A DNA stretch of 63,336 nt, counting the filler, from Folioceros fuciformis (Eukaryota): NCBI GenBank assembly GCA_049999805.1. It is 16 parts of 16 records of this genome, joined end to end, with 100 filler letters (N's around TTAATTAATTAA, not from the genome) between each part and the next. Parts side by side here need not be neighbours in the genome. Positions count along the whole stretch, not along the records: positions 31,370 to 37,410 come from JBNGIO010000746.1; 15 more parts are not named here. One strand, written 5' to 3'. The notes under the pieces were generated by a model. That model was given only the letters and a program-made list of their open reading frames with translations, made no database searches and was not told the origin of the DNA. Both the position numbers and the translations under genes were made by a program. Of this stretch, positions 18,090-38,526 are shown piece by piece. The first letter of the stretch is position 1. Each line of letters begins with the position of its first letter.

Positions 18090-21000
18090 TCAGGATTGAG
18101 ACGGAGAACATGGTGCAACACCCATCGCCTCCATGAATTGATAATGTTTACTCGCGGGCAGGTACTTGGTCAACAAGTCTGCAGTGTTGTAATCTGTTGA
18201 GACATGCTGAAGTCGCACCACCTTCTGTTCCACTTGTTGACGAATAAAATGATGCTGCACCTCGATGTGCTTTGTTCGGGCATGGAAACGCGGGTTTGCT
18301 GTCATACTGATAGTGGAAACATTGTCGCAGTGGATAAGAGTGGGCTTTAGCTGTGGAAAACCAAGACCCTGCAGGAAGGCACGCTCCCAAATTGCTTCTT
18401 TGGCAGCTTCAGTTAGGGCTTTGTACTCTGCCTCAGTAGAGGACAGAGAAACGGAAGCCTGCTTCTTTGAGCTCCAGTGAACAACAGCATTTGAGAGAAT
18501 GAAACAGTAGGCTGATATGCTTTGTCTGGCGTCAGGGTTTGTTGCCCAATCAGCATCGGCATAACCACACACGGTAGGTGTTGTATCTCGCCCCCTGAAG
18601 CATAAGCCGTGATTCATTGTGCCTTTAAGATAGCGCAAGATACGCTTGACGGCTGCCCAGTGAACTTGGCCAGGATTGTCAAGGAACTGAGAAACCGAGC
18701 TAACAGCGTATTGAATATCAGGGCGGGTCCAACAGCTGATGTAATTCAGACAGCCAACAGCGTGACGATATGGAAACTGAGACATAGCCTGGCGCTCATG
18801 ATCATCTTGTGGACAGTCATCAGCAGAAAGCTTGAGACCTGGAACACCAGGGGTGGAAACGGGCTTGGCAGAATCAAGGTGAAAACGGCAGAGAGTTTCG
18901 GCAATATATTTGCTTTGGTGAAGCATGAGAGTCTGATCCTCCAAGTTGCGGACAAGTTGAACCCCAAGAACAAAGGTAAGAGGGCCGATGTCCTTCATGT
19001 CAAACTGTTGGTGCAGCATGCCCTTGACCCAGGCAAGTAACTCAGAGTTGTTTGATGCCAGAATAGCGTCATCAACGTACAAGGCCAGTATGACGAGATG
19101 ACCTCCTTTGGTATATATATACACGTTGGCATCACCAGGGTTCTGCACGAAACCAATGGACTGCAAATACTTGTCGATGGTTTTGTACCATTCCCGGGCG
19201 GATTGCTTAAGACCGTAAATGGTCTTCTTTAAACGGCACACCCAGGTAGGATGGTCTGGAGCAATAAAACCTTCAGGTTGCTGCATATAGATGTCCTCGT
19301 CAAGCTCACCGTACAGAAAGGCGGTACACACGTCCATCTGTTGCAAGTCCCAAGCATTGGCAGCGGCGAGGGCAAGTATCATTCTGATGGACTGGGTTTT
19401 GACGACAGGACTGAAGGTCTCTTGAAAATCAACACCGGGAATCTGAGTAAAACCCCGAGCCACAAGACGGGATTTGTATCTAGCAATCTCCCCTTTTTCA
19501 TTCAGTTTATGCTTGAAAACCCACTTACAACTGACAGTTTTGCGGCCAACAGGCAGAGGACAGAGATCCCAGGTACCATTCTTGATAAGCGAGTCATACT
19601 CATCCTTGATGGATGGAATCCAGTGTGCTTTGTCTGGGCCAGTAACAGCTTCAGTGTAAGTGCGGGGCTCAGGCTTGAGAAAAGGAAACTCAGAGTTATT
19701 AGTCTTGAGAGACATGCCAGCCCTAGGACGCCGATAGTCCACAGACTGATACGGAGGCTCCTTCCAGTGAGCAGGGGGCACTCTCTCACGAGTGGGGTAC
19801 CGGTGTTCAGGCGGAGGAGCAGGAAGGGGTACATCATCATCATCAGTCACAGCAAGTTCTGGTAAAAGGTTACTGTCAGCTGAGTCGTCTGAGTGATGAG
19901 AAGCAACATCCTGCAAATCTGCTGACCCGGGAATTGACACGTCTCCTGCAGAAGCTGGATTCGCTTGATCTGCTGCAACGGAGCCAGTGTCGGTGGCAGG
20001 AATAACGTCAGGGACACCGGCAGCAGCAGCAGGAGCAACGGGTTGTGCCACCGGAAACTGCAAGAGACCAGGGTCAGGTTGGACCACTGAGCTGACATCA
20101 ATAAAATCATCCTGGGGGAACTCAGACAGGTCCTCTTCTGCACTGGCATCTGCATCGGTAAGATTCGCTGGTACAGAAAGTGTTGATTCAAAATAAGGTT
20201 TGGCAGGACTGATGAGTTCTCGAAAGGTAACACTCCTAGCGAATTGTGCTGACTGGGTGAGTGAATCATACAACTTGTAAGCTTTCGCTTCTTCACCATA
20301 CCCAACAAACAGCAGGGGTTTAGCCCGTGCATCTAACTTTCTTCGCTTTTCAGCAGGGATATATGCATAAGCAGGAGAGCCAAATACTCGAAGATGAAGT
20401 AAACTCGGCTTCCTTTGCCATATAACCTCATAAGGTGTTTTGCCATCCACAGCACTTGTCAAGAGACGATTAAGGATGTAAGTCGTAGTCACCACTGCTT
20501 CTGCCCAAAATGCTTTGCTGAGACCTGACCATTCCAGCATGCTGCGCGTCATGCCTAACAGGGTCTGGTTGCGGCGCTCAGCAACGCCATTCTGCTGCTG
20601 GGTATAAGGGACTATGAGCTGACGGACAATCCCTCGGTCAAGAAGAAACTGGTTGAAGTTGCCATGTGTAAATTCTGTACCATTATCTGAACGCAAGCAC
20701 TTCAGCTGGCGACCTGTTTGTTTCTGAACCATCTGCAGCCATTCCTGGAAGAAAGCAAAGGTGTCTGACTTCAAACGCATCGGGTAGGTCCATGAATACC
20801 TACTGAAGTCATCCGTGAGTGTAAGATAATACAAGGCACCACCTAGAGAAGGTATGTGAATCTTCCCAGAGATGTCTGCGTGCACGAGGTCCAGAATCTG
20901 AGAAGCTCTATATGCTGTCTGTTTGGGAAAGGGCACTTCCTTTTGCTTTGCTATCACACAAGCATCGCACAAAGGCAAGTCCTTGAAACATTTGGGCAGT

Positions 21001-22463
21001 GGTTCCCTGTAACAGGTTAGGTTGGACATCTTGATGAGCTTATCCCGATTGGCATGTCCTAGACGTGCGTGCCAGAGACTGGCTTGAGCAGCTTGGGTGG
21101 ACAGAGTGACATTGGCAGTGTCCACAGGTATGGCTTTTAAATCAAGTTGATATAAATCGTGCACTAAGTGTCCTGTAGCAACTACCTGACCTCTCTCCCC
21201 TCTCTTCATAAGCTCACAGCGTGAAGAAGTGAAGAGCAGATCGAAAGTGCGTAAGGACATAAGTTGGCTAACAGAAAGCAGATGTTTAGCCATGCGGGGC
21301 ACGTACAGGACGTTATCCAAGTGAAGGATGGAACCATCATGCAACATAAAGCGACAGGACCCAGAGCCTTCTATCTGCAGACCTGTACGGGTAAGTTCAT
21401 CACCCAAAAGCACTTTATCTGAAGTGGTAGATGACTGAAAATTGCTGATCAGGGACTTATCTTTGCAAATATGAGATGTAGCTCCTGAATCTAAATACCA
21501 GCACTGTGGGGAAGGATGTGCAGAAGACACAAGACAGACTGTCATGATGACAGGTGGTTTACTTGTGATCGACTGAGAAAGCCGATCCTTGGCAGCCAAG
21601 TGTGCCTCAGCCTGTTTCAAAGGCTTCTCAGCTTTACGAGGCTCGCCAGATTTTTTCTTCCGACATTCTCTCTCCTAGTGGCCCTGTATACCACACCAGT
21701 TACAGGCGCCAGTACGTTTCACAGAAATGGTCTTCGAAGAACCTGCACCTCCACTCGAGGTAGGTTTCCTCCGGTTTTGCTTTACTTGAGTCGAAAGGAC
21801 CTCGTCTGTCCTGGTTCGTCCACCATGTAAAGTAGAAGTAGCCCTGCTTTGTTCTTCCTGTAGCAAGGCACCAATAACATCAGCCAGGTTGATGTTGGTA
21901 GGCTGACCTGCGGCCCGAGCAGCATCAGCAGCGCGAACTGTGGCACCGTAGCTGGAGACGAAAGTCTGATAGCTGGGGGGCAGACTTGTCAACAACTGAC
22001 TAACTGCATCAAGCTCCGGGAATTGAGAACCCAAGTTGATGAGTTGGGCACGAAATTGGCGAAAACGGATGACAAAAGGGGACACCTTTTCACCCTCCTT
22101 AAGACGCAGAGAGAAGAGCTCTCCTCGAACGGCACACATGGTAAGAATATTTTTGGCTTCATAAGTCTGAGTCAGGAGAGTCCAAATCTCGTCAGCCTTG
22201 GTGAGGAAGGCAACGTCTGCAAGCAGTGTCTCATCCAGTCCGCTAATTAAGACGGCGCGAGCGACATAATTCAGGTTTGCCCATTTGTCCTTTTCCTCTT
22301 GTGTGGCAGATTGTGGAGGTTCCTTAAGCGTGCCACTAACAACTCCCCAAACGTGTCTCGCTTGCAGGGCAGCTGTCATGCGCACCTTCCAACCTTCGAA
22401 TTTCATCCCATTAAATCGATCCCGCTCCTTGAACTCAAAAGAGTAGGATGGCTGAGGAATCAC
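18090..22463 (-). mobile_element. gag-pol: Near-intact copia gag-pol, one frame of about 1458 codons with a single stop
   Basis: gag, CCHC, WYLDSGATSH, integrase, YVDD and RNase H all in frame; only visible lesion is TAG at 21675-21677. Confidence 0.97.
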
Positions 22464-28510: not shown

Positions 28511-28610
28511 NNNNNNNNNNNNNNNNNNNNNNNNNNNNNNNNNNNNNNNNNNNNTTAATTAATTAANNNNNNNNNNNNNNNNNNNNNNNNNNNNNNNNNN
28601 NNNNNNNNNN

Positions 28611-29993
28611 GCGGCCGCAACCCCTGCCTCTAGCTCTAGCTAGGGCATGGCCTCCACAGCCGTTCATGCCAGCCAAGCAATCAGCCAGCTTATCGTCACA
28701 CCCTGACATACCCAGATACTTGTTCCTATGTTCAAACCATTATTATATTATTATATTATTATATTATTAAATTATTATATTATATTATTATTATTTAATC
28801 ATTTAAATAATATTAAACTAATCACCCAACCCTATGGCCCGGTACCGAACCTAAACCTTCCCAGGTCTGGGACCAAACCTATACCCACTCTTATAACCAA
28901 ACCAACTATTTCATGGTCAATTAACTTAATTAGCACAAGGAAAATTAGGAAAAATAAGTTGAAAAAGAAAACCAAACCATACCACTATTAACCCTGTTTC
29001 AACCAAAACAAACTACTACCCCAAACTTTGGAGGTTCACACAGGGGTAGGCTAAGGTTAGGGTTCTTGGTTGGGATGAAGTTTAGGTCAGACCTAGGTCA
29101 GGTTGAGGTCATACCTAGGTCAGGTTTAGGTTAGACCTAGGTAAGGTTTATGTCAGACCTAGGTTAGGGTTAGGTCAAACCTAGGTTAGGTTTAGGTCAG
29201 AACCGGATGTAGGATGGTTTAAGTCAGAGAGAGAGATGAGGTTTAAGGGTACAAGAGGAGAGGCCGGCCATTGAGAGGGGGCGGTCTACGGTGTGATGTC
29301 CCCAGACCTTGTGTGCGGGACTCCTGGCTTAGGGCGCTGAGCCGGTTGAGACCGAACCGAGGTCCTGATTCCCCTTGCCACTAGGGGAACGTGGAGATCC
29401 CAAGACTGCCAAAGATCTGTGTAGCCGAATCCGCAAGGGCTGAATGATTTGCAGGCTGGCTGAAGTAAAGGAACAGGACCGTGAGCTGGAGGGCTATCCA
29501 GTCCTAGTGTCCACACTATGCTTGGAGGCTGTAGGGAGTGAAGCCATTGTGTCCCAATTTCCAGGGGGCGTCTGAAGAAAAGAGAGGAGGAGTTGGAGTG
29601 AAATGCATAGAAGTGAAGAGTGAGCTGCTGAAGTGCAGGAGTGTGTGTTGAAGTGGAGGGTGGAGGACTGAAGTGAAGAGGAAGGGACTAAAGTGGGGAT
29701 CTTGAAGAGCTGAGGTGAAGGAGAAAGTGGTTGAAGTGGGAATCATGAAGAGCTGAAGGGCTGAAGAATAGGAGTGTGAGTTGGGCGAGCTGACTTAGGG
29801 GGTAGGCTAAGCCTCTAGCCTTTTTGTTGTGAGTGTATGGACAGGCCTATAGACCCGATGATAGGTAGAAGTGTGATAGGTAGCGTTCCTTGGCACTAGT
29901 TCACTCCCTTGGGAGCGAACCATAAGACTGCAACGACAATAGGGGAATGTGTGGTCCCTTGGGTGGTTCTTGGGTGCAAGAAATCACTCCACA
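28611..29993 (-). mobile_element. TGTGG-family element 5' portion, nested in another TGTGG LTR
   Basis: Minus strand starts TGTGGAGTGATTTCTTGCACCC at 29993; 28611-28900 matches 63030-63330 inverted. Confidence 0.7.
29080..29200. repeat. 22-bp tandem repeat, about 5.5 units
   Basis: GTTTAGGTCAGACCTAGGTCAG variants. Confidence 0.85.
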
Positions 29994-31269: not shown

Positions 31270-31747
31270 NNNNNNNNNNNNNNNNNNNNNNNNNNNNNNN
31301 NNNNNNNNNNNNNTTAATTAATTAANNNNNNNNNNNNNNNNNNNNNNNNNNNNNNNNNNNNNNNNNNNNATCCGAAGCTTTTGTGCTCACTCTGTCAGCA
31401 CCTTTCGCTCACCGTCCCACGACTGGCCATGGCTCTAAGGAGCAGATAACAAGTTCCATAACCAAAAAAAAAAAGGCTTAAATATAATTTTCCTTCTACC
31501 ACCACCATCGTAGGCTTGTCGGGGATAACTGATGTCTTGCATCAGTATGCCAAGGGGCTCAAACCCGTGCACGCGGCATCCAGACACACTATACTCTCAA
31601 CCCACTGGAACATCCACCTTGGCTCAACACGGTCAGGCGCTCTCTCCCTCCCAGCCCATCCACTCGCGGTCAGGAATGTTTCCTATTGCACCAGCACTTT
31701 CACCTCCACGAACTAATGGGCCCTGGCTACTTCTGCATTAGATACTC

Positions 31748-34700
31748 TCACGGTCGACCCTTACAACTGCAAAAACCATCTGCGAATCGATGAACACGGT
31801 ACCCATCTCTTACAACAATGTCCCTCTGTTCAAGCCTTGACATGATCTCCGTAGAACTGTGACAGTCACTGCACATGCGGAGATTCTTTGTCACCACCAG
31901 AGGTGTCCCGCATTGAGTGTTCAGCAGGCCAAACGCCAGAGCCAGTTTCTCAGCATGCCCACAAAGCATGTCTTCCTTATCCTTCTCAGACCCTGAAGAC
32001 TCCAACACCAATTTTGTGTGAGGTACGTGGCCTCCTTGCTTCAGACGCACATTCGTGCTCTGTACCTTTGATGCAATCTCCTCTCTTCTTTCTCCCACCA
32101 CAAACGTATGTACCTCCGTCTTCACCTCAATGCTCGCTACTGCAGGTTTCTTGTTAGCTCCGGCTACCCTTCTCTGTGCTTCAATCCTGTCTACATCGCT
32201 CCACCTCCCTGCATCTGCGTAGGCATTTGCCATGAGCACATACGCAGACGCCTCCTGAGGGTGCAGCCCAACAATGCTTTCGAAACACCACATGGCTCTC
32301 TCGATATCCCCGTGGGTTTTGCAAGCATTCAGGAAAGACATAAAGCCCACAACATTATTTTGGATATCGCATGATAAGAGGACGTTCTCAGCCTCATCTA
32401 AATGCCCTGCACGCCCAAGAAGATCAATCAAGCAATTGTAGTGCTCAGTGGTAGGTTTGATGCCATATTCTTCAGCCATGGAATCAAAGAGCTTGCGACC
32501 CTCAAGCACCAGTCCCTCGTGACTGCATGCTACTAGGAGGCAAGTGAAAGTAGCCTCATCCGGCTGGATACCGGCAACTAGCATCTCCTCGAAACACGCT
32601 AGTGCTTTGTTACCTTCATCACATGCACCATATCCAAATATCAGCGCGTTCCATGTCACCACATCCTTTAACGCCAAGCTGTTAAAAACCTGACGTGCAG
32701 CCACGAGTCTCCCACATTTTGCATACATGTCCACCAGGCAGTTGCCCAATACGATATTATCCAGCAGTCCTCTTCTCACAATCTCTAAATGCAGCTGCCT
32801 GCCCTTCTCTATGGCTCCAATGCTCCCACAGGCGTTGAGAAGGGAAGCAAAAGTAACGTGGTTAGCTATTATCAGGCCCTCCTCCTCCATTCGTCCATAC
32901 AAAACAAGGCAGTCATTCCCAAGCCCTTGCTGGGCATACCCCGTAATCATCGCAGTCCATGTCACCACATTCTTCGTGGTCATGCCGTCAAAAACCCGGC
33001 GTGCATCTGTCAGTTGGCCACATTTCGCATACATGTCAACCAGGCAGTTGCCCAACACTACGTTGTCCAGCAGCCCTCTTTCGACAATCTGTGAGTGCAG
33101 CTGCTTGCCCTTCTGTAAGGCACCAGTGCTTGCACAGGCTTTAAGAAGGCAAGCAAACGTAACATCATTAGCCAAAACGAGCCCCTCTTGCTCCATTTGT
33201 CCATACACAGCAAGCGCCTCTTGGCCGTGTCCTTGCTGTGCATACCCAGCTATCAGGGCATTCCATGTCACCACATCCTTTGTGGCCAAGCTGTCAAACA
33301 ACAGACGTGCAACTTTCAGTTCGCCACATTTAGCATACATGCCCAAAAGGCAGTTGCCCACCAGCAAGTTATCCAGCAGTCCTCTTTCTACAATCAGTGA
33401 GTGCAGCTGCCTGCCCTTATGCAAGGCCCCAGCACTTGCACAGGCCTTGAGAAGGGAAGCAAAAGTGACATGGTCTGCCACAATCAAGCCCTCCTGTTCC
33501 ATTTCTTCATATAAAACAAGGGCCTCATGCCCCAGCCCCGTGTCGGCATATGCAGCAATCAGGACATTCCAGGTCACCACATCCTTTGTGGCTAAGCTGT
33601 GGAAAACCTGGCATGCATCTGGCAGTTCCCCGCATCTTGCATACATGTCTACCAGGCATGTCCCCACCGGTGCTCTATCCAGCATTCTTCGTTCGACAAT
33701 CAGGGAGTGCAGCTGCCTGCCCTTCTGTATAGCACCAGTGCGTGCACAGGCCTTGAGAAGGCAAGCAAATGTAATATGATTGGCGAGAGTAAGCCCATCC
33801 TGCTCCATTTGTTCGTACACAGCAAGAGCTTCATGCCCGAGCTCTTGCTCAGCATACCCTGCTATCAGGGCATTCCATGTCACCACATTCTTTGTGCTCA
33901 TGCTGTCAAAAACCTGGCGTGCATCTTTCATTTCACCACATTTGGCATGTCCAGATATCATGGCATTCCACGTCACCACATCCTTTTTGGCCATTCTGTC
34001 GAAAACCTGGCGTGCAGCTTTTACTTCTCCACATTTTGAATACATGTCCACCAGGCAGTTTCCAACAAATACGTTAGTTGGAATGTCACTGTGCAGCACA
34101 TCGTAGTGCACTTTTCTGCCAGATTCCAAGTCGGAAGCAAATGCGCAAGCTTGAAGCGCAGCCACAAAGACGTGACCATTCGGCTTCACTCCTGACCTAC
34201 GCATCTCATGGTAGAGTTGTATGGCCTCCTTAGCTTGCCCATGCTTTGCGTGTGCAGAGATCATGGAACACCACATGAAGGCATCTGGTCTGCGCACCCT
34301 GGTGAACACATCCATAGCCTCCTCTAGTCGACCTCCATATGCATACATGCGCAAGATATGGCTCCCCACGCATGCAATCGAATCGTACCCAAGTTTAACA
34401 CTGAGATCATGAACTCGTCTCCCAGCGACCAAATCCTTTTTCGCTGTACACAGCTTTAGCACAGTGCAGAACAGTGAGTGAGAAATAGCTGAGCGAGTCT
34501 GCGCCAGAAATTCCAGGGCTCCAACTGCCGAGGAAAGCTTGCCCTGCTGGCATAACATGCTCACGGTTCCAGCCTCTAAATGGCCCATTTCCGATCCTGC
34601 ACGCCTGCCAGGCTCAGGATTCTCCGGATAGCTGGACTTGAAACGAGAGGGAGCACGGCCCATCTGTACATCCAAGGAAACGAGCCGCTCATCAACCCAA

Positions 34701-35356
34701 GCTGGTTTGAACATATTGTTTAACCACAGGACCTCACCAGGCCCCTTACGCTGGAAGTCGGGCGACCGCAAACTCTTCTTACGTCGTCTGTCATCCCACC
34801 ACACGGTAGGGTCGAGAAAGAATTGTCGCCACAGGTGCTCCTGCTCTTGGGAACTCCCATAGCTGGAGAATCCGCTCCCACCCACACATTTTCCCGGAAA
34901 TGTAAGTGCTGGGCTCCTTTCAGGAGTGCTGCACATTGACCCCATCAAGGATCCTTCGTGGCTGCCAGGTTCAGGCATGAAGGGCTTGGAAGCAAAGGCG
35001 CCACGAGGTGAATGCATATCCAAGGAAACCAGCTGCTCATCAACCCAATCTGGCTTGAACAGATTGTCTGACCAAAGGACCTCGCCGGACCCTTTACGCC
35101 GAAAGAGAGGCGGACGGCCGCATCTGTTGTTCCACCACCTGATAGGTTCCACAAAAAGTTGTTGCCTCAAGTGATTCTGCCCCTGGCTTCGCGCATGATG
35201 GGTGGAAAGTCCGTCCCCACCCACAAATTTTCCCCGAAGCGGAAGTGCTGGTCTCTTGGTAGTGCTGCAACTGCAACTGCACCTGCACCTAGGTGCACGC
35301 GGGGGCGAGGTGGCTTGCCACACGGTGAGACTATCTGACCCGGGAAAGAACGACTC
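31748..35356 (-). CDS. PLS-class PPR-E1-E2-DYW:KP (GRP-type) organellar RNA-editing factor with two N-terminal PDF-like motifs; main exon
   Basis: About 21 P/L/S motifs, E1, E2, KPAVASIEV, HAEKLA, CSDCH, CSCKGRP*; uninterrupted frame of about 1200 codons; true start unresolved, TTTTAG acceptor at 35357. Confidence 0.96.
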   Translation of the reverse strand, partial: ESFFPGSDSLTVWQATSPPRAPRCRCSCSCSTTKRPALPLRGKFVGGDGLSTHHARSQGQNHLRQQLFVEPIRWWNNRCGRPPLFRRKGSGEVLWSDNLFKPDWVDEQLVSLDMHSPRGAFASKPFMPEPGSHEGSLMGSMCSTPERSPALTFPGKCVGGSGFSSYGSSQEQEHLWRQFFLDPTVWWDDRRRKKSLRSPDFQRKGPGEVLWLNNMFKPAWVDERLVSLDVQMGRAPSRFKSSYPENPEPGRRAGSEMGHLEAGTVSMLCQQGKLSSAVGALEFLAQTRSAISHSLFCTVLKLCTAKKDLVAGRRVHDLSVKLGYDSIACVGSHILRMYAYGGRLEEAMDVFTRVRRPDAFMWCSMISAHAKHGQAKEAIQLYHEMRRSGVKPNGHVFVAALQACAFASDLESGRKVHYDVLHSDIPTNVFVGNCLVDMYSKCGEVKAARQVFDRMAKKDVVTWNAMISGHAKCGEMKDARQVFDSMSTKNVVTWNALIAGYAEQELGHEALAVYEQMEQDGLTLANHITFACLLKACARTGAIQKGRQLHSLIVERRMLDRAPVGTCLVDMYARCGELPDACQVFHSLATKDVVTWNVLIAAYADTGLGHEALVLYEEMEQEGLIVADHVTFASLLKACASAGALHKGRQLHSLIVERGLLDNLLVGNCLLGMYAKCGELKVARLLFDSLATKDVVTWNALIAGYAQQGHGQEALAVYGQMEQEGLVLANDVTFACLLKACASTGALQKGKQLHSQIVERGLLDNVVLGNCLVDMYAKCGQLTDARRVFDGMTTKNVVTWTAMITGYAQQGLGNDCLVLYGRMEEEGLIIANHVTFASLLNACGSIGAIEKGRQLHLEIVRRGLLDNIVLGNCLVDMYAKCGRLVAARQVFNSLALKDVVTWNALIFGYGACDEGNKALACFEEMLVAGIQPDEATFTCLLVACSHEGLVLEGRKLFDSMAEEYGIKPTTEHYNCLIDLLGRAGHLDEAENVLLSCDIQNNVVGFMSFLNACKTHGDIERAMWCFESIVGLHPQEASAYVLMANAYADAGRWSDVDRIEAQRRVAGANKKPAVASIEVKTEVHTFVVGERREEIASKVQSTNVRLKQGGHVPHTKLVLESSGSEKDKEDMLCGHAEKLALAFGLLNTQCGTPLVVTKNLRMCSDCHSSTEIMSRLEQRDIVVRDGYRVHRFADGFCSCKGRP

Positions 35357-35446
35357 CTAAAACTCGTCAAGTTATTAATGCAAGCAAGTGTGCAGTCGTG
35401 GGGTCCACCATCCTGACACCGGTAGCCGGTGGAGCCAGCATGCCCT

Positions 35447-35662
35447 CGGAGGAGTGTGGCATGCACAAAGTCATTACCTCATACATGCACAGCCAACTCA
35501 CATCGGTGGAGTGTGGCATGCACATAGTCATTATCTCATACATGCACAGCCAACTCACATACGCTCGTGTATGCCGGGGTAGAGACAACTCACATGCGCC
35601 CGTCTATGCCGGGGTCGAAACAACTCACATATGCCCGTGTATGCCGGGCTCGAAACTCACAT
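35447..35662. repeat. Tandem repeats (57-bp x2, about 35-bp x3) upstream of the PPR exon
   Basis: AACTCACAT at 35495, 35552, 35587, 35622, 35654. Confidence 0.85.
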
Positions 35663-36199
35663 GGACGTCGTTGCCACATTTTGCGACATCAAACACTTCA
35701 AATCCCCTTTTCAAGTAAGGGTGTTTTCCTTCAGCACTAAAGGCAAGTACAAGAGGGCTCATTATGAAGCTCACGTCAAGAGCTTTCTTCTGAATCAAGA
35801 ATCAAAGTATATGGATAAACATGGAGATAGAAAATTACATTCAAAGAACGAGTTGGTTGCTATCTTCTTTGACAGATAGCAAGACATATACTGGACCATA
35901 TCAGGATTGAGATAGCTTTTTTTCTGAAGCCTACAATAAGAGCATTTTTTCTAAACCATTCTCACAGCCTAAGAATAAGTATAGACATTGGAATAGACAT
36001 TCAAAGAACTCATAACAAAAGCTGAGTTGGTTTTCTTCTTTCACCCGTAGCTCAAGATATCTTCAACAAAAACAGGGTACATATGACTTATTTTGAAGCT
36101 TGAATTGAGAGCGTTTTTTTAATCAAGCCATGGAGTTTGTGGGCAAGTATGGAGACTACAAAAACCATTCAAAGATATGATGATAGAAGCTAGTTGTTG

Positions 36200-37260
36200 A
36201 CCAAGATCACACTTGATTCTCATCTCGTAGGAGGACCGTGGACATCTTCTCCTTCCTCACCTTCTTCGGATGCTTCTAGCTATTTGCAAGCTCAACAATG
36301 CTCTTTTTCCATTTCAAACTATTGCCAAGACCATTGTCCATTTAGTTGAGCTGAACAGAATTCAAGGTTTGTGCTCCACATAATCGGGATTCTACTTGTC
36401 GTGGCTGACATAACAGAATGTTGGCTTCAGCATATGCATGCTGAAGCAAAGAAGGATTTCCAGACTGTACAAGATCCTACAATGCTTGAATTGTATACTC
36501 CCAATCTTTGTATGAGCATTTAGGTAGCATAGCTTGAGGGTTGTTGGAAGCTTGCACCCCTCCAACACATGATGTGTCCTCTCCTACATGACAAGGTTTA
36601 GTGTTTGTTGAAGTATTGTTACGTACAAGTGTGAGAAGGAGGTCCCGAGTTGAATGCAATTGCCCTTTCATTTGTAATACCTTTGCTTGGTGTTTGCAGA
36701 AAAAGCCTTGCATTCCTCTTGGACAATTGCAGCATGCCCAGTCCCCTACAGGATTGTAAACTGTGTATATCAGCCTTTTATCTGTGCAGCTTTGCACAAG
36801 AGCTGGTTCTTAATCATTAGGAGGAAGTGTAACATGGTCCTCAGGTATAGAAAGAGAGCCCCTCACACTGCATTTTCAATAATCACCTCTTGCTTTCCAT
36901 TGTGCTTGAACCCATGTTGTTTTGTAAAGTGCTTGTGCCAATACACTTTGCATACTGTATTTGTTAGTGATGGAGCAACCAATCCATACGTCGACCTCGC
37001 AGACGCATAAAATCATGGCTCAACATGGACTTTAAGAAGCCATGCCAAGCTTCAATTGATGAATTGCAGTCCTAGCTAGCATGTGGCATGGTCGTGGAAT
37101 ACTTTAGCCACATAGGTAGCACCCCCTCCACTGATTCTTGAAATACTGAATAAACTCTGGAGCTTCTCTTTCATAATCCACATATAATTGTTGTAGCATC
37201 TTCTTAGCCTCATCATATATGTGCCAACGTCGAGAAACATACATGATGCCACCAAGGCGA
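36200..37260 (-). pseudogene. Mutator-like (MULE) transposase relic with SWIM zinc finger
   Basis: FIQYFKNQW, NSSIEAWHGFLK, GRRMDWL, WACCNCPRGMQGFFCKH. Confidence 0.8.
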
Positions 37261-37510
37261 CTAAATGTGAGTAAATAGGGTCTTTTTACCCCACCCTTGG
37301 GTTAAATAATTTAGGGTAATATACCTTTTCGTAACTTAGGGTTACACAGATAATTTTGTATATAAACACACATTGCCTTTGATTTAATTTATCATTTTTG
37401 TGCACTTGTANNNNNNNNNNNNNNNNNNNNNNNNNNNNNNNNNNNNNNNNNNNNTTAATTAATTAANNNNNNNNNNNNNNNNNNNNNNNNNNNNNNNNNN
37501 NNNNNNNNNN

Positions 37511-38526
37511 CAAGCACCAGAAAAAAATGGGACGACAAGGGAAGGAAGCTCCTGTTCATAGGCTACTCCGATCAAGTCAAAGCTTACAAACTCTTCGATC
37601 CCTCAACTCATGAGGTAACCCTCTCCCGCAGTGTTCACTTCAATGAACCTCTCCTGCTCCAAACCTACCTCCATAGCACGTCTACATCAACTCCACTTCC
37701 CAAACCTGGTCTTCATGGTTATCCCCCTCTTGATCTTGAGGGGGGCACACACGATGACGATACTTACTCCTCCGATCAGTCATTCTTCTTCCAAGATCAA
37801 GAGGCCCTCACATTACCTCCATTAGCAGTACGAGAGGTAAATTCTAATCAACATGTAGGTTCTGAACCTCCTCACTTACTAGATGTACAGACTTTAAGAC
37901 GCTCTTCCAGGCATAGACCTCCCAGGACTGAGTGGTCGGATCCACCCTATACTCCAAGAGACACATTGGTCAGTAGGATCTCCTCTCCCAGTGCATCCCT
38001 ACCTTCAGATGCACCGACACCAGTCGATCAGGCGCACCTCGCCATGCATCAAGCCTTATCAGCTATTGAAATGCAAGGAGTACCTGCAACAATTGAGGAA
38101 GCTCTCAACATACCCGAATGGAAAGCAGCTGTACAATCTGAATACGACTCACTTCTTTCAAATAAAACCTGGATCCTTACTGGCTTACCACAGGGCAGAA
38201 AGCCAATTTCTTGTAAGTGGACTTTTCGGAGAAAGCTCAACCCAGATGGAAGCGTGTCACGGTATAAGGCCAGGCTCGTAGCCCGGGGATTTACCCAAAT
38301 CCCAGGTTTCGACTATGAGGAAACTAAGCTGTTTAGCCCAGTGGTAAAGGCAACATCCATCAGAGTTCTCTTGGCATTTGCCGCACAACATAAGCTCGAT
38401 ATCCACCAGCTCGATATCAAAACGGCTTTCCTGTATGGAACATTGCATGAAGACATATATATGCTTCAGCCACCTGGATTTGTGCAGGATCAGCGAAAGG
38501 TTTGCAAGCTACTTAAGTCAATCTAC
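37511..38526 (+). pseudogene. pol: Copia integrase C-terminus and RT fragment
   Basis: [35 protein letters not shown]. Confidence 0.93.

Follow-up and report, generated by a model that had tools for sequence, protein, structure and literature searches.

A hornwort PPR-DYW:KP gene of the GRP subtype, a candidate U-to-C editing factor, carries N-terminal PDF motifs homologous to those of OSB proteins

Here, we describe a PPR-DYW:KP gene of the hornwort Folioceros fuciformis, which is wholly contained in JBNGIO010000746.1 (positions 31370-37410 of the window, by which we mean the whole 63,336-nucleotide stretch of DNA that was analysed). The gene and its surroundings comprise the following features:

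31748-35356, minus strand: open frame without introns, stop-to-stop length 1202 codons, in the order PDF (degenerate), PDF, PLS PPR array, E1, E2, DYW:KP (GRP)
31748-32149, minus strand: DYW:KP domain, GRP subtype, 133 aa plus stop (stop 31748-31750, residues 31751-32149), by Pfam and paralogue alignment
31991-32043, minus strand: private changes upstream of HAE, a residue missing after position 38 and ESSG at 50-53 for the family's KPL, by paralogue alignment
32150-32353, minus strand: E1 and E2 motifs, 34 aa each (Pfam E motif, boundaries by eye)
32354-34570, minus strand: PLS-class PPR array, 21 clear motifs and one degenerate first motif, with 306-nt triplet repeats (Pfam, repeat search, motifs counted by eye)
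34673-34849, minus strand: intact PDF motif, aa 170-228 (~59 aa), homologue of the ssDNA-binding PDF motif of OSB proteins (profile search, alignment, AlphaFold)
35015-35017, minus strand: Met114, the earliest ATG in frame, lying between the PDF copies (frame translation, family comparison)
35021-35185, minus strand: degenerate PDF motif, aa 58-112, with the first Trp lost, PDF changed to PLF and a 4-aa deletion (duplicate of the 5' block)
35315-35332, minus strand: remnant of the family N-terminus with TVWQ kept but no ATG, the family's Met-Ala being replaced, and a leader some 20 aa shorter (family comparison)
35446-35656, no strand assigned: short tandem repeats 5' of the gene, 2 x 57 nt and 3 x 35 nt (repeat search)

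Pfam finds PPR_2 (E 1.6e-106), DYW_deaminase (E 2.8e-30) and the E motif (E 3.5e-13) in the frame, whose closest solved structure is the synthetic PPR-DYW protein 9kfx (E 4e-54). Counted by eye, the PPR motifs run L-S-P-L-S-SS-(P-L-S)x4-P2-L2-S2, followed by E1 and E2. An earlier note on this DNA had called the gene the only intact host gene among transposable elements. As to the first part, a Pfam scan of 25 of the 36 other window ORFs of at least 150 aa, a length cut-off that short-exon host genes could escape, matched no host family (13 ORFs belong to LTR-retrotransposon families and 12 had no match). As to the second, the frame is indeed unbroken, but the ATG of the family start is missing and the first Met is residue 114. 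Elsewhere in the window, a Copia-type pol frame (18090-21674, minus strand; integrase and RT) extends over 1194 codons without stops, the remaining transposable-element frames being fragmentary, and the joins (28512-28611, 31270-31369, 37411-37511 and others) consist of N runs flanking a spacer that has stops in every frame.

The last 133 aa contain every signature that had been read there, namely KPAVA for the PG box, HAEKLA for HSE, CSDCH, and a GRP terminus. The residues K1-P2, H65-A66-E67, K88, M92, C93/C96, E101, H120 and C127/C129 are present, with roles taken from published work on the DYW:KP domain (PMC9478123; PMC11845758). The domain has the hallmarks of DYW:KP GRP (KP box, HAE...CxxC zinc site, Lys88, Met92, Glu replacing the PG-type K103, and the GRP end) and none of those of DYW:PG (PG box, HSE, terminal DYW), and the PLS-P2L2S2-E1-E2 array expected of the GRP subtype lies upstream. 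In a quick tree of 81 rows, drawn from the genome's own sequences alone, the window gene falls within a 29-row GRP clade (SH-aLRT 100), separate from the DRH and PG proteins. Judged by its sequence, the gene keeps both its assignment to the DYW:KP GRP class and its candidacy as a U-to-C editor. The GRP variant was reportedly first described by Gerke et al. in 2020. The distribution given earlier, hornworts, ferns and some lycophytes, is right for DYW:KP overall, but GRP, like DRH, is one of two hornwort variants (PMC9478123). That DYW:KP domains act from U to C in heterologous assays is borne out by the GRP consensus proteins KP2 and KP3, which edit about 26% and 22% in E. coli with no C-to-U editing in the available part of that report, where the fern-type KP6 also performs C-to-U (PMC9478123). 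The chemistry had been called unresolved; this needs amending insofar as Lys88 is now proposed to donate nitrogen through a protein-RNA crosslink, while two points do remain open, the release of that crosslink, which persists in heterologous hosts and is absent in the fern, and whether natural KP proteins are active, still unestablished in the available part of PMC11845758 (PMC11332814; PMC11845758).

A search of the genome for paralogues (87 Mb, 7240 contigs) showed the gene to be one of at least 150 close ones (150 scored among 553 candidates), the 149 others being 77-86% identical; the GRP domain itself is therefore an already known type, ordinary for a hornwort. The gene is an atypical member of this candidate U-to-C family, lacking the family start. 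By exact pattern, 55 DRH-type ends occur (control 0). Beside hundreds of KP candidates, the genome searches brought out only 6 full-length PG-type DYW genes (L064-L069), and C-to-U editing in this genome may have few catalytic donors. Within the PG-type set, L068 has an HAE site and ends in DQW. At loci L029-L040 (contigs C5803, C6370, C5624, C3304 and C6113), GRP genes of either strand are densely clustered and interspersed with broken copies, and hornwort PPR expansion is reported to be driven by retroposition (PMC13386178).

By confining itself to 31748-32149, the earlier note missed the N-terminal PDF motifs, which are the more novel part of the gene. Pfam has no family in the first 265 aa of the frame at E up to 1, and the OB-fold (SSB) domain of OSB proteins, which match PF00436, is not found there. 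The two PDF copies are an internal duplication of the 5' block (repeats of 81% and 79%; 54% aa identity, E 1e-27). A profile of 30 paralogue motifs, run against 8000 candidates, picked out 12 proteins; OSB2 of Ziziphus (E 2.9e-14) is one of them, and SSB-domain proteins and PPR fusions are others. The PDF motif profile matched 805 cluster representatives at E <=0.001, among them clusters named OSB1. A rough phmmer sort of 160 PDF-motif proteins placed 78 with an OB domain, 17 with PPR (the window protein included) and 65 with neither. The intact motif aligns to OSB-type copies nearly without gaps at about 41-44% identity and keeps the OSB invariant residues. We thus identify the N-terminal motif, by homology, as the OSB PDF motif, with copy 1 degenerate. 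OSB1-4 are organellar ssDNA-binding proteins with a PDF motif (Zaegel et al. 2006, as cited in PMC6963530 and PMC6451138), and the PDF motif of AtOSB1 suffices for ssDNA binding (PMC6963530; PMC6451138).

AlphaFold, given a deeper alignment, models the PDF motif as a compact helix-strands-helix unit (pLDDT 91.5), and given an alignment of paralogues alone returns a weak model (pLDDT 65.7). Fold searches with both models gave nothing at Z >=5 and nothing in Foldseek at E <=0.001. A sequence search of the N-terminus against solved structures gave a single chance match (E 0.2), the ESM Atlas only phage matches, all sub-threshold, and a word-based search of full-length proteins with the PDF region none at E <=0.001 among 18 candidates. 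The complex prediction for the two PDF copies, run without alignment, scored 0.09 against a mark of 0.32 and weighs neither for nor against their association. A small metagenomic protein that does not look like a plant's (P0134, ENA, 185 aa) has the motif at its end, and the unnamed proteins P0015 and P0021 carry arrays of as many as 11-13 copies.

Within the genome, the intact PDF copy has 150 matches scored among 491 candidates, and the exact WWDNR pattern occurs 236 times (control 8). Among frames of at least 600 aa at loci L021-L083, the motif is present in 28 of 29 GRP frames with a DYW domain, a set that was partly picked via the motif and includes the window gene; the one miss has its 5' end outside the retrieved stretch. 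It is present in 16 of 45 other, 5'-closed KP frames and in 0 of 6 PG-type frames, a 5'-open frame and a GRP-type frame truncated at its 3' end being left out of the KP and GRP counts, and a broader HMM rescued none of the PDF-negative frames. A harder sample was taken from 20 stretches around GRP matches that, by eye, were missing from the top-150 list of the motif: here 15 of 19 5'-closed frames carry the motif, 4 of the 15 scoring under 45 bits (two 5'-open frames and one fragment were left unscored), and the 4 misses comprise 2 frames with assembly gaps, 1 starting inside the PPR array and 1 clean deletion (L085). The dN/dS of the motif is 0.27 (0.20-0.35) across 38 GRP genes, a set that excludes short degenerate PDF matches and so biases the value downward; the flanking leader and linker have 0.67 and 0.76, the first PPR motifs 0.20 (37 genes) and DYW 0.14. 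The PDF motif is under purifying selection. It is also dispensable in many genes, as seen from the 29 of 45 other KP frames without it, the L085 deletion and the 4 of 15 weak matches. In a quick, weakly supported tree of the C-terminus, the PDF-bearing KP genes form one derived subclade with several losses. The motif also heads long PPR frames with no DYW match in the stretches taken (L111, L112, L113, L117, L118 and L124), of which L111 and L112 end soon after a W-rich PG-like box (E+ type) and L117, L118 and L124 extend past the stretches taken.

Beyond the hornwort, 16 other PDF-PPR proteins were found, 12 of them named (Adiantum 2, Pteridium 4, Ceratopteris 2, Diphasiastrum 3, Selaginella 1); two of the unnamed, P0007 and P0145, have GRP termini, and a Sphagnum protein has, by eye, a PDF motif ahead of a PPR-like start. 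No named seed-plant fusion is among the best 150 of the 805 matches. Since PDF-PPR fusions occur in ferns, clubmosses, Selaginella and Sphagnum, the motif is not specific to U-to-C editors, an idea also ruled out by the DYW-less PPR frames. Plastid editing in S. uncinata is exclusively C-to-U according to the part of the report available (PMC4174432).

Two further genes bear on the origin of the fusion. At L105 (contig C2033, L105:1765-3250, minus strand) lies a gene without PPR repeats, made up of a leader that by eye resembles a mitochondrial presequence, a PDF motif, an acidic linker and a C-terminal DYW:PG part (Pfam positions 9-93, E 3e-35) in which HSE, CxxC and DYW are kept and the PG box is absent; judging from its sequence, it is a candidate stand-alone DYW factor. 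As splicing is read from the DNA, its PDF motif is split by a phase-0 GT-AG intron right after WWDNRxxK. L106 (contig C6415, L106:2544-3640, minus strand) is an OSB-type gene with SSB exons, one PDF motif and a phase-0 intron, and the introns of L105 and L106 lie at the identical place within the motif. L105, with its OSB intron, points to a possible route by which a genome-maintenance motif entered the editing machinery. In the PPR-fused copies examined the motif has no intron, which fits capture from OSB followed by retroposition, the general trend in hornworts (PMC13386178). Our literature search, which ran over texts other than Gerke 2020, Gutmann 2020, Zaegel 2006 and supplements, found no description of a PDF-PPR fusion, and the main text of PMC13386178 has 0 occurrences of OSB, PDF, SSB or single-stranded. 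As far as this search shows, both the fusion of PDF to KP enzymes and a PDF-DYW gene without PPR repeats are new.

What, then, might the window gene do? Our preferred reading, held with moderate confidence, is that it is a nuclear gene whose product, an organellar PLS-PPR-DYW:KP (GRP) factor with a PDF accessory, most probably edits a single U to C. That the GRP family edits U to C is highly probable; that the PDF motif is a nucleic-acid-binding accessory is, by analogy with OSB, reasonably probable; and that the window copy is itself active is, from its sequence, somewhat better than an even bet. The protein would be imported into the plastid or the mitochondrion, where, as in the papers on synthetic GRP proteins, the PPR array would bind upstream of the editing site and the zinc/Glu67 centre would turn U into C via a covalent intermediate, Lys88 donating the nitrogen. 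With S2 set at -4, the predicted target has G at -23, and its positions -20 to -4 read U Y Y n G U n U Y n Y A n U U n Y; in the PPR code N,N reads C/U. The PDF motif, taken from an OSB gene, would serve as a sequence-independent single-strand-binding accessory and from its place 5' of the PPR site may hold the transcript open or raise avidity. More widely, it would be a general add-on of PLS-PPR editing factors in seed-free plants, outside the U-to-C chemistry. A search of the genome assembly for organellar markers gave no rbcL match and one short cox1 fragment only; the cox1-like fragment at L084 (contig C1915) is short, contains a stop and is probably a nuclear copy of mitochondrial DNA.

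The window gene might instead be a decaying or mistargeted paralogue, its start codon gone and its transit peptide partly lost, with a degenerating first PDF and a drifted pre-HAE region. The family start lies about 70 aa ahead of the PDF motif, and a Met at least 45 aa ahead of it is found in 54 of 57 5'-closed PDF-bearing frames, the 3 exceptions being the window gene, a frame beginning at the motif and a frame with an assembly gap; the window frame has no ATG ahead of residue 114, and its leader is shorter by about 20 aa. A displaced upstream copy of the family start was looked for by tblastn and in the list of ATGs, and none is in frame. The decay reading also draws on the private DYW changes, the one-residue deletion being common to 1 of 50 other GRP domains and ESSG at 50-53 to 0 of 50, in a region upstream of HAE that we take to be the gating part of DYW, on the broken family copies in several loci, and on the LTR retrotransposons around the gene. 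On the other side, the 3.6-kb frame is free of stops and frameshifts, the catalytic residues are all kept, as are all invariant ones of the second PDF copy, leaders starting at Met114-141 resemble the family's in composition (3 acidic residues among 40, the family mean being 1.9), and AG acceptor-like sites, seen by eye near 35340-35357, would permit an upstream exon. We consider decay or mistargeting less likely than not.

Sequencing runs gave some further detail on this copy, the RNA nature of all 17 runs compared being a guess. In run X1, eight listed contigs match 31370-35047 piecewise without a differing letter, and one of 717 nt (34331-35047), which may depend on the assembly, bridges the intact PDF motif and the PPR start with no mismatch. 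The same run leaves 35410-37410 uncovered, none of its listed pieces lies 5' of 35047, and its contigs cannot mark a start. Runs X2, X4 and X9 have only short paralogue pieces of ~90%.

Other functions can be envisaged for the PDF motif. It might tether editing factors to single-stranded organellar DNA, at the nucleoid or a transcription bubble, so that editing is co-transcriptional and the motif leaves RNA untouched. Single-stranded DNA is indeed the documented ligand of PDF (PMC6963530; PMC6451138) and the OSB invariant residues are kept, but a position beside the PPR N-terminus, on the 5' side of the RNA, would fit RNA contact equally, and we judge a DNA tether to be rather improbable. It is harder still to favour a protein-docking module that would join PDF-PPR proteins to a PDF partner, such as L105 acting as a DYW donor in trans, or to a factor releasing the crosslink. 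Such docking would suit the coupling of PDF to a C-terminal DYW:PG part without PPR repeats in L105, the PDF motifs heading the DYW-less PPR frames L111, L112 and L113, the fact that no more than 6 full-length PG-type genes were conspicuous in the genome searches, and the finding that synthetic KP proteins (PLS triplets plus C-terminal domains) remain crosslinked whereas edited fern RNA is free (PMC9478123; PMC11332814). Against it, ssDNA binding is the sole function on record for PDF in the available parts of the sources (PMC6963530; PMC6451138), the motif also occurs in Sphagnum and in Selaginella, S. uncinata plastid editing being C-to-U exclusively (PMC4174432), and 29 of the 45 other KP frames do without it. 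Least probable is that the motif is a passenger with no editing role, captured once with an OSB-derived leader and spread by the retroposition that drives hornwort PPR expansion (PMC13386178). The single, weakly supported subclade with several losses, the clean loss in L085 and the degenerate copies would suit it, but the dN/dS of 0.27 is near that of the PPR motifs (0.20) and far under those of the adjacent leader and linker, and fusions are retained in ferns, lycophytes and mosses.

Returning to a PDF accessory on a U-to-C factor, its importance lies in what published activity rests on: according to the available reports, consensus proteins without a natural N-terminus, which are poorly active and stay crosslinked to RNA. 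Most natural GRP proteins of this genome carry at their N-terminus a conserved, compact module of the ssDNA-binding type. As a speculation to which we give only a slim chance, this module, omitted from designer KP editors, is what lets natural U-to-C enzymes finish: by binding RNA, or by docking a partner (the PPR-less PDF-DYW protein, for example), it would allow the Lys88-RNA crosslink to be resolved or the catalytic domain to be exchanged; in a wider sense, it could be the seed-free counterpart of the seed-plant MORF proteins. The PDF module may bear on the completion of U-to-C editing and on the design of better RNA editors.

Compared with known systems, the window gene is closest in its catalytic part to the designer proteins KP2 and KP3, with which it shares the KP box, HAE, CxxC, M92, Glu for the PG lysine, K88, the GRP end, the length of 133 aa and the PLS-P2L2S2-E1E2 layout (Ichinose et al. 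2022, PMC9478123). Unlike them it is natural and full-length, has two N-terminal PDF motifs, has private DYW changes at 38 and 50-53, and is without the family start. With the PPR-DYW:PG C-to-U editors (OTP86, 7o4e; DYW1, 7w86; the synthetic 9kfx) it has in common the PLS-E1-E2-DYW layout and the zinc-deaminase motifs, but it has KP for the PG box, HAE for HSE and GRP for DYW, and none of the 6 PG-type genes examined in this genome has the PDF motif. With OSB1-4 it shares a motif of ~50-60 aa (W..F..P..WWDNR..PDF..LW..P.WV), about 41-44% identical and single or repeated, whereas it lacks the OB-fold and bears the motif at the N-terminus of a PPR factor rather than C-terminal to an SSB domain. 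Finally, like the PDF-PPR proteins of ferns, Diphasiastrum, Selaginella and Sphagnum, it has its PDF motifs directly ahead of a PLS PPR array; the named proteins of this kind that we examined are DYW-less or partial, whereas in this genome the motif sits on a KP-type enzyme, in most members of a family of hundreds.
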